Origin: Escherichia phage PECP20
Sequence record: OQ873415.1
Reading direction: 5' to 3' (one strand)
DNA: 64,000 nt
Shown: piece after piece, positions 43,906 to 49,337 of the stretch
Numbering within the stretch: the first letter of the stretch is position 1
Layout of the letters: every line of letters begins with the position of its first letter
Translations under genes and position numbers: made by a program
The notes under the pieces: generated by a model
Seen by the model: only the letters and a program-made list of their open reading frames with translations
Databases searched by the model: none
What the model was told of the DNA's origin: nothing

Positions 43906-44562
43906 ATGGCCGATTTAAAAGCCGGAAGTACAGTTGGTGGTTCCGTCATATGGCATCAAGGCAATTTTCCTTTAATGCCAGCTGGCGATGACATCCTATA
44001 TAAAACATTTAAATTATACACCGAATATAACAAGCCAAAAGCGGCTGATAACGATTTCGTATCTAAAGCAAACGGTGGGACATATCTCAAAAAGGTAATC
44101 TTTAACGAAGGTGTTGCAGTCAAAACAGCAGATGACCAAACGAATGGTATTTTTTCTGGTGGTGGTGACGCCGCGACATTCGACCAAACAAACATGGATA
44201 TTGTTTCGTGGTATGGTATTGGGTTTAAATCATCTCAAGGTACAGGTGAAAGAACCGCTGTAATTGATACTCGCACCGGTAATATAAGTTCTAAAGGCGT
44301 TATTGAAGCATCTCAATTCAGAGCCACAACGTTAGCACCTTTAAATAATTACGACCTTACTCGCAAAGATTATGTTGATAGTCAAATAAATACAGTTAAT
44401 GCTAATGCAAACAGTCGTGTACTCCGTTCAGGAGATACGATGACCGGCGCGCTAACCGCCCCAAACTTTTTCTCACAGAATCCTGCATCTCAACCCTCGC
44501 ATGTTCCACGATTTGACCAAATTGTTATTAAGGATTCTGTTCAAGATTTCGGCTATTATTAA
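43906..44562 (+). CDS. 36: gp36 long tail fibre distal connector
   Basis: 218 aa at the T4 gene 36 position. Confidence 0.88.
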   Translation: MADLKAGSTVGGSVIWHQGNFPLMPAGDDILYKTFKLYTEYNKPKAADNDFVSKANGGTYLKKVIFNEGVAVKTADDQTNGIFSGGGDAATFDQTNMDIVSWYGIGFKSSQGTGERTAVIDTRTGNISSKGVIEASQFRATTLAPLNNYDLTRKDYVDSQINTVNANANSRVLRSGDTMTGALTAPNFFSQNPASQPSHVPRFDQIVIKDSVQDFGYY

Positions 44563-44570
44563 GAGGACTT

Positions 44571-47500
44571 ATGGCTACTTTAAAACAAATACAATTTAAA
44601 AGAAGCAAAACTGCAGGAGCACGTCCTGCCGCTTCAGTATTAGCCGAAGGTGAATTGGCTATAAACTTAAAAGACCGTGTACTTTTTACTAAAGATGACC
44701 AAGGAAATATTATTGATCTAGGTTTTGCTAAAGGTGGTAGTATTGACGGGAATGTTATTCATACTGGCAATTACAACCAAACTGGTGATTATACTTTAAA
44801 TGGCGTCTTCACACAGACGGGTAATTTTAATTTAACTGGTATTGCTCGAGTAACTCGCGATATTATTGCCGCCGGGCAGATTATGACTGAAGGCGGTGAA
44901 CTTATTACAAAAAGTTCAGGCACAGCACATGTTCGTTTTTTCGATAACAATAGTCGCGAACGCGGAATCATTTATGCCCCGGCTAATGATGGTTTAACTA
45001 CACAAGTACTTAATATCAGGGTTCAAGACTATGCCGCTGGTAGCGAAAGCACTTATGCATTTTCAGGCAGTGGACTATTTACTTCACCTGAAGTATCAGC
45101 ATGGAAATCTATTTCGTCTCCACAAATTCTAACCAACAAAGTCATTACTAATAATAAATCTACGGGTGATTATGACATCTATTCGATGGCAGACAATGTT
45201 CCATTGTCTGAAAGCACTACTGCTATTAATCATCTTCGTGTCATGCGTAATGCCGTTGGTTCTGGTATTTTCCATGAAGTTAAAGATAATGATGGAATAA
45301 CTTGGTATAGTGGAGATGGATTAGATGCTTATCTTTGGTCATTTACCTGGAGCGGCGGAATTAAATCAAGTCACTCAATTTCTATCGGTTTAACACCAGG
45401 TAATAAAGATTATTCAATATTAGGACCATCTAGCATTGCTTTAGGAGATAATGATACTGGATTTAAATGGCATCAAGACGGATATTATTTCAGCGTTAAT
45501 AATGGAACAAAAACGTTTTTATTTAATCCTAGCGAAACAACTAGCCTAAGAAAATTTGTAGCTGGATATTCTACTAATGGAACCGATTTAACTACTCCTC
45601 CAACTGAAAACTATGCTCTTGCTACTGTTGTGACATATCACGATAATAACGCGTTTGGAGATGGTCAGACTCTTTTGGGATATTATCAAGGCGGTAACTA
45701 TCATCATTATTTCCGCGGCAAGGGTACTACAAACATTAATACTCACGGCGGTTTGTTAGTTACTCCTGGTAATATTGACGTTATTGGCGGTTCTGTAAAT
45801 ATAGATGGTAGAAATAATTCTTCTACACTAATGTTTAGAGGCAACACAACAGGATACAGCTCGGTTGATAATATGGATATTAAAGTTTGGGGTAATACGT
45901 TTGTTGATCCAAGCGGAGGTATCCGTAAAAACATTATGGAAATTTCTGATGCAACTAGCTGGATGAGCTATATTCAAAGACTTACTACTGGCGAAGTAGA
46001 AATGAACGTTAATGGTTCATTTGAATCATCTGGTGTTACTGCTGGAGATAGAGGAGTTCACACAACAGGTGAAATTTCATCTGGAGCAATGAATGCACTT
46101 CGCATTTGGAATGCAGATTATGGAGCCATTTTTAGACGTTCAGAAGGTAGTCTTCATATTATTCCAACTGCTTACGGTGAAGGCAAAAATGGTGATATCG
46201 GTCCACTTCGCCCGTTTAGTATGGCTTTAGATACCGGTAAAGTTACTATTCCAGATTTACAATCAAGTTACAATACGTTCGCAGCGAACGGCTATATTAA
46301 ATTTGTTGGTCATGGCGCTGGCGCAGGTGGATATGATATTCAATATGCCCAAGCGGCTCCTATTTTCCAGGAAATTGATGATGATGCTGTAAGCAAATAT
46401 TATCCTATTGTTAAACAGAAGTTTTTAAATGGTAAAGCCGTTTGGTCTTTAGGTACTGAAATTAATTCGGGTACATTCGTTATTCATCATCTGAAAGAAG
46501 ATGGATCACAAGGCCATACGTCTCGTTTTAATCAAGACGGTACTGTTAACTTCCCAGATAACGTTTCTGTTGGCGGCGGTGAAGCTACTATTGCTCGCAA
46601 TGGTAATATCTGGTCTGATATCTGGAAAACGTTTACTTCTGCCGGTGATACTACAAATATTCGCGATGCTATTGCGACTCGTGTTTCGAAAGAAGGCGAC
46701 ACGATGACCGGCACTCTTTGGATTAATAAAGATGCCGCTGGAATAGTTCTTAATCCTCCTTTGACCAGTGATTCATCATTTATTCGTTCTGATACGGCCG
46801 GGGCCAATAATTGGTATATTGGTAAAGGCGGTGCCGACAATGGTCTAGGTTTTTACAGTTATGTTACACAAGGCGGTGTATATATAACAAATAACGGAGA
46901 AATATCACTTTCTCCTCAAGGCCAAGGAACATTTAATTTTAATAGAGACCGCCTCCATATAAACGGTACACAATGGGCCGCACACCAGGGCGGTGGTTGG
47001 GGAAATCAATGGAATCAAGAAGCACCGGTATTTGTAGATTTTGGTAATGTTGGTAATGATAGTTATTATCCTATTATTAAAGGAAAATCCGGTATTACTA
47101 ATGAAGGATACATATCTGGTGTAGATTTTGGTATGCGACGCATTACTAATACATGGGCACAAGGTATTATTCGTGTAGGTAATCAGGAAAACGGTTACGA
47201 CCCACAAGCTGTATATGAATTCCATCATAACGGTACTTTTTATGCTCCAAGCTTACTTAAGAGCAGTAGAGTATCAGCTGGTGGTGGTGACCCTGCATGG
47301 GGCGGGCCGTGTATTGTACTTGGAGATAACGATACCGGTTTGCTTTGGGAAAACGATGGTATTTTCAACGCATATGCAAACGGCCAAGGTGTGTTTAGTT
47401 TTAGACCTGGTTTAGCTCAGACATTCGGTGATGTTAACTTCCACTGTAATGCAGGTATGTATGTTCGTGATAACATTGATGTTAATGACGTTTATATTCG

Positions 47501-47822
47501 TTCTGATATTCGTTGTAAGTCGGAAATTAAGCTTATTAAGAACGCTCAAGAGAAATCTAAACTATTGGGCGGTTATACTTATCTGCTTAAAAACTCTGTT
47601 ACAGACGAAGTTAAACCGTCCGCAGGTTTAATTGCTCAGGAAGTTCAAGAAGTATTACCTGAACTTGTTTCTGAAGATAAAGAGACCGGACTGCTTCGTT
47701 TGAACTATAACGGTATTATTGGTTTAAATACAGCTGCAATAAACGAGCATACAGATGAAATCAAGGAATTGAAATCTGAAATTACCGAATTGAAAGCATT
47801 AATTAAATCATTGATAAAATAA
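44571..47822 (+). CDS. 37: gp37 long tail fibre distal subunit with C-terminal intramolecular chaperone (peptidase S74-like) domain
   Basis: 1083 aa; conserved N-terminus MATLKQIQFKRSKTAGARPAASVLAEGELAINL; C-terminal about 114 aa (VYIRSDIRCKSEIKLIKNAQEK...coiled coil) resembles self-cleaving chaperone domains of T5 pb1, endosialidases and T2/S16 gp37. Confidence 0.9.
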   Translation: MATLKQIQFKRSKTAGARPAASVLAEGELAINLKDRVLFTKDDQGNIIDLGFAKGGSIDGNVIHTGNYNQTGDYTLNGVFTQTGNFNLTGIARVTRDIIAAGQIMTEGGELITKSSGTAHVRFFDNNSRERGIIYAPANDGLTTQVLNIRVQDYAAGSESTYAFSGSGLFTSPEVSAWKSISSPQILTNKVITNNKSTGDYDIYSMADNVPLSESTTAINHLRVMRNAVGSGIFHEVKDNDGITWYSGDGLDAYLWSFTWSGGIKSSHSISIGLTPGNKDYSILGPSSIALGDNDTGFKWHQDGYYFSVNNGTKTFLFNPSETTSLRKFVAGYSTNGTDLTTPPTENYALATVVTYHDNNAFGDGQTLLGYYQGGNYHHYFRGKGTTNINTHGGLLVTPGNIDVIGGSVNIDGRNNSSTLMFRGNTTGYSSVDNMDIKVWGNTFVDPSGGIRKNIMEISDATSWMSYIQRLTTGEVEMNVNGSFESSGVTAGDRGVHTTGEISSGAMNALRIWNADYGAIFRRSEGSLHIIPTAYGEGKNGDIGPLRPFSMALDTGKVTIPDLQSSYNTFAANGYIKFVGHGAGAGGYDIQYAQAAPIFQEIDDDAVSKYYPIVKQKFLNGKAVWSLGTEINSGTFVIHHLKEDGSQGHTSRFNQDGTVNFPDNVSVGGGEATIARNGNIWSDIWKTFTSAGDTTNIRDAIATRVSKEGDTMTGTLWINKDAAGIVLNPPLTSDSSFIRSDTAGANNWYIGKGGADNGLGFYSYVTQGGVYITNNGEISLSPQGQGTFNFNRDRLHINGTQWAAHQGGGWGNQWNQEAPVFVDFGNVGNDSYYPIIKGKSGITNEGYISGVDFGMRRITNTWAQGIIRVGNQENGYDPQAVYEFHHNGTFYAPSLLKSSRVSAGGGDPAWGGPCIVLGDNDTGLLWENDGIFNAYANGQGVFSFRPGLAQTFGDVNFHCNAGMYVRDNIDVNDVYIRSDIRCKSEIKLIKNAQEKSKLLGGYTYLLKNSVTDEVKPSAGLIAQEVQEVLPELVSEDKETGLLRLNYNGIIGLNTAAINEHTDEIKELKSEITELKALIKSLIK
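47478..47819 (+). other. gp37 C-terminal intramolecular chaperone / autoproteolytic domain
   Basis: Motif YIRSDIRCK (Ser-Lys dyad context) followed by a predicted coiled-coil tail. Confidence 0.55.
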
Positions 47823-47827
47823 TAAAA

Positions 47828-47841
47828 GGGCCTTCGGGCCC
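47828..47841 (+). other. GC hairpin between genes 37 and 38
   Basis: GGGCCTTCGGGCCC directly after the gene 37 stop and before the gene 38 SD GGAGG; no U-tract. Confidence 0.4.
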
Positions 47842-47852
47842 TGGAGGTTTAT

Positions 47853-48632
47853 ATGGCAGTAGTAGGAATCCCTGGTTGGATTGGGACTTCAGCCGTTGCT
47901 GAAACGGGACAAAGATGGATGACGGCTGCTTCAAGGGAACTTCGTTTAGGAAACCCTTCATGGATGTCCCAATTCGCGGGCCGTTCAAGAGAAATAATTC
48001 ACACACTTGGAGCAGACCATAACTTCAACGGTCAATGGTTCCGAGATAGATGTTTTGAGGCAGGTAGTGCACCTATAGTGTTTAATATCACCGGAAATTT
48101 GGTATCATATAGTAAAGATGTTCCATTATTCTTTATGTATGGCGATACGCCAAATGAATATGTTACTTTGAATATTCATGGTGGAGTTCATATGTGGGGA
48201 CGAGGTGGTAACGGTACTGTAAACGGAAACCCAGGCACTAATGGTGGCGATGTAATCCAAAATGATATCGGCGGAAGACTTCGTATTTGGAACTATGGTG
48301 TTATTGCATCAGGCGGTGGCGGAGGTGGTGCAGTGTCATTACAGAATAGCTGGGCGCCAAATGCTACAGCAGGTGGCGGTGGTGGTAGACCATTTGGCAT
48401 CGGCGGAGGTGGAGTTAATTGGCCGGGTGGTAATGCTAGTTATGACGCCCCGGGCGGGGCCGGTTACACTTCCCAATTCGGCGGAGGCAATGGCGGTGAT
48501 GCTGGAGGTCGTGGCGGAGATGGATGGGGTAATCACTTATCTAGATCTGGCGGTGGTGCTCCTGGCAGAGCAGTATTCGGAAGTTCACCGTCATGGGGTG
48601 CTACAGGCACAATCTACGGCTCCTGGATTTAA
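47853..48632 (+). CDS. 38: gp38 T2-type receptor-binding adhesin
   Basis: 259 aa; N-terminal gp37-attachment region [23 protein letters not shown]...[43 protein letters not shown] is T2 gp38-like; C-terminal half has glycine-rich motifs separated by variable segments. Confidence 0.9.
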
Positions 48633-48650
48633 ACGATAATACCTCTCAAT

Positions 48651-48658
48651 TATAAATA
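48651..48658 (+). promoter_or_regulatory. late promoter (TATAAATA) for holin gene t
   Basis: Exact TATAAATA about 8 nt upstream of SD GGGAGG. Confidence 0.6.
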
Positions 48659-48665
48659 TTGATAA

Positions 48666-49337
48666 ATGGGAGGTAATATGGCAGCACCAAAAGTATCATT
48701 TTCGCCTAGTGATATTTTATTTGGGTTGCTAGACCGCATTTTCAAAGATAACGCCTCTGGAAATATTCTTATTTCAAGAGTTGCTGTTGTAGTTCTTTTG
48801 TTCCTAATGGCACTAATATGGTACAAAGGGAATATTTTTATGGATTATTACGTGAGGTCGAAATATGATACTTACACAGAAGTAATTCAAAAAGAAAGAA
48901 ATACACGATTTGAATCTGCGGCTTTAGAACAACTACAAATAGTCCACGTCACATCAAGGGCGGATTTTAGTTCGGTGTATTCTTTCAGACCTAAAAATCT
49001 AAATTATTTCGTCGACCTTATTGCGTATGAAGGTAAGTTACCTAGCACAGTAACTGAAAAATCTATGGGAGGATTTCCTGTTGATAAAACGACAGCAGAA
49101 TATTCGGTCCATTTAAGTGGACTTCACTTTACTTCTAAAACAGATTTTGCTTTCTTACCTACCAAATCAAAAACTCCGGAACTGGCGTATATGTATAGTT
49201 GTCCTTACTTCAATTTGGATAACATATATGCGGGAACTGTTTCTATGTATTGGTATAAGGGATCGGATGTGCTAAATGAAGAACGCTTGGCTGCAATATG
49301 CAACCAAGCAGCAAGGATATTAGGGCGGGCTAAATAA
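48666..49337 (+). CDS. t: holin T
   Basis: 223 aa; single N-terminal TM (VAVVVLLFLMALIWY) and large periplasmic domain; T4 T-like throughout. Confidence 0.93.
   Translation: MGGNMAAPKVSFSPSDILFGLLDRIFKDNASGNILISRVAVVVLLFLMALIWYKGNIFMDYYVRSKYDTYTEVIQKERNTRFESAALEQLQIVHVTSRADFSSVYSFRPKNLNYFVDLIAYEGKLPSTVTEKSMGGFPVDKTTAEYSVHLSGLHFTSKTDFAFLPTKSKTPELAYMYSCPYFNLDNIYAGTVSMYWYKGSDVLNEERLAAICNQAARILGRAK

Follow-up and report, generated by a model that had tools for sequence, protein, structure and literature searches.

The window analysed here, a 64,000-nt stretch of Escherichia phage PECP20 (OQ873415.1), carries the gene order gp37-gp38-t, with gp36 (43906-44562) lying upstream of gp37. gp38 is a single ORF of 259 codons plus a stop (47853-48632, plus strand), and a GGAGG Shine-Dalgarno sequence can be read 5 nt upstream of its ATG (47843-47847, plus strand). 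The preceding ORF encodes gp37, the distal subunit of the long tail fibre (44571-47822, plus strand), which has Pfam matches to Gp34_trimer and Peptidase_S74 and, at 1083 aa, the same length as the 'long tail fiber distal subunit' of phage CAU_ECP01. The gp37 trimer forms the structure whose tip is capped by gp38. The Peptidase_S74 match (aa 978-1033) begins exactly at S978, within a DVYIRSD motif at aa 973-979 (47487-47507), and by analogy with phage S16 and the fPS phages (PMC7917993) gp37 is predicted to cleave itself after DVYIR977|S978, which would remove the last 106 residues, a C-terminal intramolecular chaperone (aa 978-1083; 47502-47819, plus strand), and expose the docking surface for gp38.

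Two further elements flank the gene. A predicted stem-loop, GGGCC-UUCG-GGCCC with a UUCG tetraloop (47828-47841, plus strand), follows the gp37 stop and precedes the gp38 ribosome-binding site; folding of 47820-47856 gives a predicted dG of -12.3 kcal/mol, and the hairpin may be an RNA-stabilising or processing element. Beyond gp38 lies an exact T4-type late promoter motif, TATAAATA (48651-48658, plus strand), upstream of holin t; in the record of phage fPS-2 a late promoter is annotated at a similar distance beyond gp38. The holin gene (48678-49337, plus strand; Pfam Phage_holin_T, 5.6e-89) lies within a mechanical ORF beginning at 48666 (MGGNMAAPK...); in relatives the annotated start is the ATG at 48678, which gives a CDS of 660 nt, as in CAU_ECP01, and is likely to be the true start. 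The gene is approximately 100% identical to that of RB69 and phiC120.

The family to which gp38 belongs is identified by Pfam matches to GP38 (PF05268; 4e-83, 279 bits against a cut-off of 25) and Gp38_N (PF21721; 8e-21, 74 bits, cut-off again 25), the NCBIfam scan returning no family match for a protein that Pfam already covers. Sequence matches in the PDB are to the adhesins of PP01 (9v85, 3e-73) and S16 (6f45_D, 2e-48), and an AlphaFold2 model built from a 75-sequence alignment (mean pLDDT 87.4) was matched by Foldseek to the same two entries, with E 2e-25, a TM score of 0.91 normalised to the target and an rmsd of 1.6 Å for 9v85, and E 3e-23, TM 0.84-0.88 and 2.5 Å for 6f45_D; besides these gp38 structures, the search of the PDB found no fold below E=4. 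The original prediction of a T2-type gp38 adhesin that determines host range is thus supported by both Pfam families, by the gene order and by the fold match. That PECP20 gp38 might instead be a T4-type assembly chaperone or catalyst, absent from the virion, as the GenBank label 'long tail fiber assembly chaperone/catalyst' for CAU_ECP01, Shf125875, RB69, Bp7 and others would have it, can be rejected as having practically no chance of being right, since all Pfam matches at E<=0.01 are to adhesin families and the predicted fold equals that of the virion-bound adhesins of S16 and PP01, while gp37 ends in a Peptidase_S74 self-cleaving chaperone rather than the T4 needle tip and the RB69 record's own note calls the gp38 of the T2 subfamily an unrelated adhesin. 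As an observation on annotation, the records of CAU_ECP01, Shf125875, RB69, Bp7, OLB35 and KMB38 mislabel the adhesin with a name carried over from the unrelated gp38 of T4.

The model predicts a three-domain fold, comprising a helical attachment domain with three Trp prongs, a beta-helix and a polyglycine-II (PGII) sandwich. The N-terminal attachment domain (aa 1-46; 47853-47990, plus strand, as for all gp38 elements below) is covered by Gp38_N over aa 1-42 and is modelled as a three-helix bundle, with helices at 10-18, 23-29 and 38-40 that are each preceded by a tryptophan (W9, W22 and W37). It is followed by aa 47-115 (47991-48197), which open the beta-helix domain and where strands and a capping helix at 60-69 are modelled with a pLDDT of 93-96, in agreement with the beta-helix and alpha4 of S16 gp38 (PMC6851490). 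The original prediction had taken the N-terminal 110 residues as the gp37-binding part, which holds for approximately aa 1-46, the portion that docks in the S16 structure and matches Gp38_N, but not for aa 47-115, with which the beta-helix begins. Further along, the model contains a long high-confidence stretch with neither alpha nor beta assignment, the appearance that a PGII lattice has in DSSP, and this agrees with S16 gp38 (PMC6851490); the structure described in the literature has ten PGII helices.

The specificity domain is organised into glycine-rich motifs (GRMs) and hypervariable segments (HVSs), a layout defined by Trojet et al. (PMC3157838), and the literature count of five GRMs and four HVSs is also what column entropy delimits in an alignment of 75 gp38 family members. 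GRM1-3 have mean column entropies of 0.07-0.39 bits against 2.0-2.7 bits for HVS1-4, insertions and deletions within the 75 homologues cluster in the HVSs, and invariant glycines fall within 116-121, 154-159, 174-185, 212-221 and 235-238, as the five-GRM layout has it. Alignment with T2, K3, Ox2, S16 and PP01 had been proposed as the way to delimit the variable segments; the comparison with individual gp38 proteins took in T2, PP01 and S16 of these plus closer relatives, and alignment with relatives gave HVS1-4.

From the N-terminal side, GRM1 (GRGGNG, aa 116-121; 48198-48215) has invariant G116, R117, G118, G119 and G121 and a mean entropy of 0.23, and leads into HVS1 (TVNGNPGTN, aa 122-130; 48216-48242; entropy 2.0), an indel hotspot that corresponds to loop-A of PP01 (W119-I124). 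Conserved beta-helix rungs follow at aa 131-153 (48243-48311; entropy 0.7), with many invariant columns and model strands at 135-137, 143-147 and 150-152. GRM2 (GGGGGG, aa 154-159; 48312-48329; entropy 0.07) aligns with the GGGGGGGG run of S16, which forms PGII helix 3 in that protein (PMC6851490), and HVS2 (aa 160-173; 48330-48371; entropy 2.66), the equivalent of PP01 loop-B, is the lowest-confidence block of the domain, with a pLDDT of about 63. In GRM3 (aa 174-185; 48372-48407; entropy 0.39) G175-G178, P180, G182 and G185 are invariant and G174, R179 and F181 are conserved in at least 90%; HVS3 (aa 186-209; 48408-48479; entropy 1.96) contains Q208, to which we return below. GRM4 (aa 210-221; 48480-48515; entropy 1.23) retains invariant G214 and G215, with G212, G218 and G221 at 90% or more, HVS4 (aa 222-232; 48516-48548; entropy 2.37) has an indel hotspot at 225, and GRM5 (GGGAPGRAV, aa 233-241; 48549-48575) has nearly invariant G235, G238, A240 and V241. 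The C-terminal strands that would close the beta-helix (aa 242-259; 48576-48629) are modelled at 241-243, 247-250 and 253-255, with conserved P246, W248, G252, I254, Y255 and G256. The receptor loops A, B and C of PP01, as defined in PMC12892980, fall by alignment at HVS1, HVS2 and the beginning of HVS3.

The interval to which the original prediction drew attention, 48190-48632, comprises only the C-terminal 147 residues of gp38, 48190 being the second base of codon 113. Four poly-Gly blocks had been described there, and these are present exactly as written, at aa 116-133 (48198-48251), aa 154-161 (GGGGGGAV, 48312-48335), aa 174-187 (48372-48413) and aa 210-226 (48480-48530). Glycine motifs separated by variable segments are therefore real, but the division into four blocks is not, there being five GRMs and four HVSs, and the first block takes in GRM1, HVS1 and the beginning of the conserved region that follows. 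Glycine makes up 34.7% (51/147) of aa 113-259 against 11.6% of aa 1-112, and the DNA of the C-terminal half has a GC content of 54% against 37.7% for the whole window. Two ORFs overlap this region in other frames, at 48262-48639 (plus strand, 125 aa) and 48339-48536 (minus strand, 65 aa), and were rejected as hidden genes as neither is conserved as protein: both are open in all relatives compared, which is explained by GGN-rich sequence being free of stop codons, but where the gp38 of the relatives has 0-2 amino-acid changes they have 4-22. Only the gp38 frame is conserved, and so the glycine-rich pattern is real and no compositional accident.

The original prediction had further named the variable segments as the part with the best chance of being peculiar to this phage, and this does not stand. 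It had given identity of these segments to a characterised gp38 as what would speak against it, and RB69 and RB51 show just that identity. The gp38 gene is 100% identical at the DNA level to the CAU_ECP01 CDS (XLQ29182.1), whose product has no difference from that of PECP20 and is annotated, wrongly, as an assembly chaperone, and 99.6% identical to that of CCU7, within a surrounding 20 kb that is 98.8-99.1% identical to these two phages. The exact protein occurs in NCBI (EEZ6272105.1 and others) on 10 contigs and falls into a 90%-identity cluster of 123 members; among the 13 full-length members listed, the query aside, seven have no difference in aa 113-259. With the C-terminal half as a tblastn query, identity over aa 132-259 reaches 99% or more in 28 phage records, among them RB69, RB51, RB68, phiC120, phage 132, EO1, EC128 and G2540. 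HVS1-4 are identical in PECP20, RB69, RB51, phage 132, phiC120 and CAU_ECP01, and a codon-level comparison of aa 113-259 with RB69, RB51, phage 132 and phiC120 finds 0 amino-acid differences against 11-25 nucleotide differences (dS 0.10-0.24, dN 0-0.006), from which it follows that the HVSs within this allele are under strong purifying selection. 'Hypervariable' segments, in other words, vary between alleles and can be frozen within one.

A reading in which the HVSs are peculiar to PECP20 and confer an as yet uncharacterised receptor specificity could draw on the high entropy of the HVS columns across the family (2.0-2.7 bits), and on aa 113-259 being only 50-57% identical to the adhesins of T2, PP01 and S16. 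It is nevertheless highly improbable, given the shared HVSs and the recurrence of the exact protein described above, and given that the receptors of identical or near-identical alleles are known, RB69 and RB51 both having been shown to depend on OmpF. Published work already covers the gene, its fold and modular logic and, for exactly this allele, the receptor, and PECP20 gp38 is neither unique nor new in these respects.

More distant alleles give a measure of how far the family diverges. T2 gp38 (FadL/OmpF), which gave the 'T2-type' adhesins their name, belongs to the same Pfam family and has the same GRM/HVS layout, is 54% identical to PECP20 in aa 113-259 and 38% in aa 47-112, and T2 is reported to target FadL; the gp38 proteins of M1, T6 and Ac3 appear as database matches at 53-64% identity. 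PP01 (9V85, OmpC) and S16 (6F45, Salmonella OmpC) share the three-domain architecture and PGII sandwich predicted for PECP20, and their GRMs align with it, but their loops are different, with 61-69 amino-acid differences in aa 113-259, and so is the receptor; PP01 also has an extra insertion with the loop-E contact Y230, which is absent in PECP20. Within the cluster itself, a second sub-allele is seen in the members P0003, P0006, P0123 and P0124 (e.g. UGJNEcP4, MN04 and UPEC01), carrying the changes T122S, N126S, A168P, P169A, A171S, I183L, A199G, A203G, Y205N and R220A/W, all of them in HVS1-3 except I183L (GRM3) and R220A/W (GRM4).

The closest functional guides are RB69 (AAP76154.1) and RB51 (ACP31167.1), which share the gene order gp37-gp38-t and are identical to PECP20 throughout aa 113-259, including all GRMs, all HVSs and the switch glutamine, with 1-2 residues differing in aa 47-112. 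Both phages require OmpF and were also reported to depend on FhuA and a full-length LPS core (Trojet et al., PMC3157838), and for RB51 genome-wide RB-TnSeq again assigned OmpF (10.64898/2026.04.02.716166). The same preprint showed, by mutagenesis in both directions, that RB51 Q206L is necessary and sufficient for a change from OmpF to OmpW, so single substitutions in the specificity domain can change the receptor. By alignment, RB51 Q206 is Q208 of PECP20 (codon CAA, 48474-48476). Among near-identical alleles, Bas38 (AugustSocin) and Bas47 (AlbertHofmann) have I183L and R220W as their sole differences in the C-terminal half, and Bas46 (ChristianSchoenbein) has I183L alone; with these one or two substitutions, in GRM3 and GRM4, the three phages are OmpF-dependent, the BASEL supplementary table giving OmpF as the primary and LPS (deep core) as the terminal receptor. 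FL33, with five differences in aa 113-259, uses OmpF, as do FL31 and FL34, each with a minor, one-log effect of TolC (Lutz et al., PMC12032242), and fPS-2 and fPS-90 use OmpF plus LPS core in Yersinia (PMC7917993).

All characterised carriers of this domain thus depend on OmpF, and because the PECP20 loops are identical to those of RB69 and RB51 and position 208 is Gln, OmpF is predicted as its receptor. Judged from the sequence, the gene very probably specifies a gp38 adhesin of the RB69/RB51 allele in a Mosigvirus-like T-even phage, with OmpF as the primary receptor. A primary receptor that can be predicted from sequence alone helps cocktail design, and with OmpF as the predicted receptor, resistance would be expected through loss of ompF or ompR. 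O157:H7 strains served as hosts in the isolation of CAU_ECP01, the phage closest to PECP20.

The adhesin may not act through OmpF alone, or the FhuA, LPS and TolC effects may be indirect, and this sets up the better of the competing explanations, that binding is multivalent or context-dependent, involving OmpF together with FhuA, TolC or the LPS outer core, or mainly another porin such as OmpW. Pointing in that direction are the reported need of RB69 and RB51 for FhuA and a full LPS core besides OmpF, the one-log TolC effect for FL31, FL33 and FL34, the LPS core needed by fPS-2 and fPS-90, and the ease with which a single Q-to-L change gives OmpW, the fPS-2 sequence having an ambiguous base in exactly that codon. 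Against it, RB-TnSeq gives simply OmpF for RB51, with LPS secondary and attributed to gp12; BASEL likewise separates OmpF, as primary, from LPS, as the other, terminal receptor; LPS, tolC and fhuA effects can arise indirectly through porin expression, a caution that Trojet et al. voice for LPS; and PECP20 has Q, not L, at 208. We therefore consider multivalent or OmpW-directed binding unlikely, and retain OmpF as the primary receptor, with the qualification that a different gp37 or attachment module in PECP20 may modulate receptor use despite the identity of gp38.

Variation at codon 208 was looked for more widely. An exact 20-mer around this codon, in its Q or L version, was not found among the IMG/VR viral contigs; one of the inspected cluster members has Q208R and none has L at this position. 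In the fPS-2 record (LR215722.1), the only ambiguous base of gp38 (N; nt 623, locus position 923) gives a codon CNA at the position of Q208. This base is homologous to 48475 of PECP20 and to the base of RB51 at which an A-to-T change gives the switch from OmpF to OmpW; a mixed population at a hotspot for host range may lie behind the ambiguity.

On the basis of the homologous structures and the receptor studies above, attachment could proceed as follows. The gp37 trimer would fold and its C-terminal chaperone (aa 978-1083) cleave itself off after R977, as the S16 and PP01 structures suggest, leaving an exposed tip to be capped by one gp38 monomer through the three-helix domain (aa 1-46), in which W9, W22 and W37 would serve as hydrophobic prongs docking on the gp37 tip. 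Residues 47-259 would form the beta-helix, with two long excursions folding into a PGII 'sandwich' built from the GRMs, and HVS1-4 would be the distal loops presented to the extracellular loops of OmpF, the probable primary receptor from experiments on the adhesins of RB69 and RB51 and on seven others that are nearly identical. Once several long fibres had bound reversibly, the short fibres (gp12) would be released and attach irreversibly to the LPS core.

The two ends of gp38 have had different histories. Among carriers of this specificity domain, aa 1-46 fall into three types that are 10-21 residues apart: that of PECP20, common to CAU_ECP01, Bas38 and Bas47; a second, found in Bas46, fPS-2, FL33, phage 132 and phiC120; and a third, found in RB69 and RB51, separated from that of PECP20 by 19-21 differences and two extra residues, and also in PP01, there with a different, OmpC-specific C-terminal domain. 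The original prediction of a conserved, T2-type N-terminal 110 residues is accordingly imprecise, aa 1-46 being the most variable portion of gp38 in the clade and aa 47-112 only 38% identical to T2, below the 54% of the C-terminal half. Each N-terminal type is paired with a distinct gp37 C-terminal chaperone sequence, giving three combinations, that of RB69 and RB51 being different from, though related to, the PECP20 type, and this co-variation could reflect physical linkage or functional matching.

Binned nucleotide identity to RB69, RB51, phage 132 and phiC120 places a sharp breakpoint near 47990, at gp38 codon 46/47: upstream, identity is 49-80%, and over the rest of gp38 it is 80-100%, mostly 91-100%. 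Past the gp38 stop, to about 49385, identity is approximately 100% with the Mosigviruses RB69 (holin and downstream DNA alike) and phiC120 but 60-80% with the Tequatroviruses RB51 and phage 132, and PECP20 is therefore Mosigvirus-like, an assignment that fits a GC content of 37.7% and AlbertHofmann as the closest classified relative. Across Mosigvirus and Tequatrovirus, at least three attachment-domain/gp37-tip modules are found coupled to the specificity cassette, aa 47-259. This cassette has been exchanged between the genera almost unchanged and under strong purifying selection, and the attachment domain moves by recombination along with the gp37 tip and chaperone. Recombination in this clade thus reshuffles the attachment end, an inverted variability in which a frozen specificity cassette is coupled to a mosaic attachment end. 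This inversion and the single-codon hotspot at Q208 are the only points of the locus that are instructive, and mildly so.

A stronger version, which we offer only tentatively and consider unlikely, is that aa 47-259 constitute an 'OmpF module' that moves horizontally, has swept recently and is subject to unusually strong purifying selection, with position 208 as a natural escape hotspot. The latter proposal derives from the ambiguous base of fPS-2, the Q208R of one metagenomic relative and the Q-to-L change that gives OmpW. Were this stronger version correct, a single mutation would separate PECP20 from a change of porin, and recombination would favour joints at the module boundaries near 47990 and 48600. 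A separate observation concerns the switch codon in the RB phages: the GenBank gp38 entries of RB68 (KM607004 / AIT75709.1) and RB51 (ACP31167.1) are one identical protein, but the RB68 of the 2026 preprint carries Q206L and targets OmpW, so that either the stocks or the deposited sequence differ.
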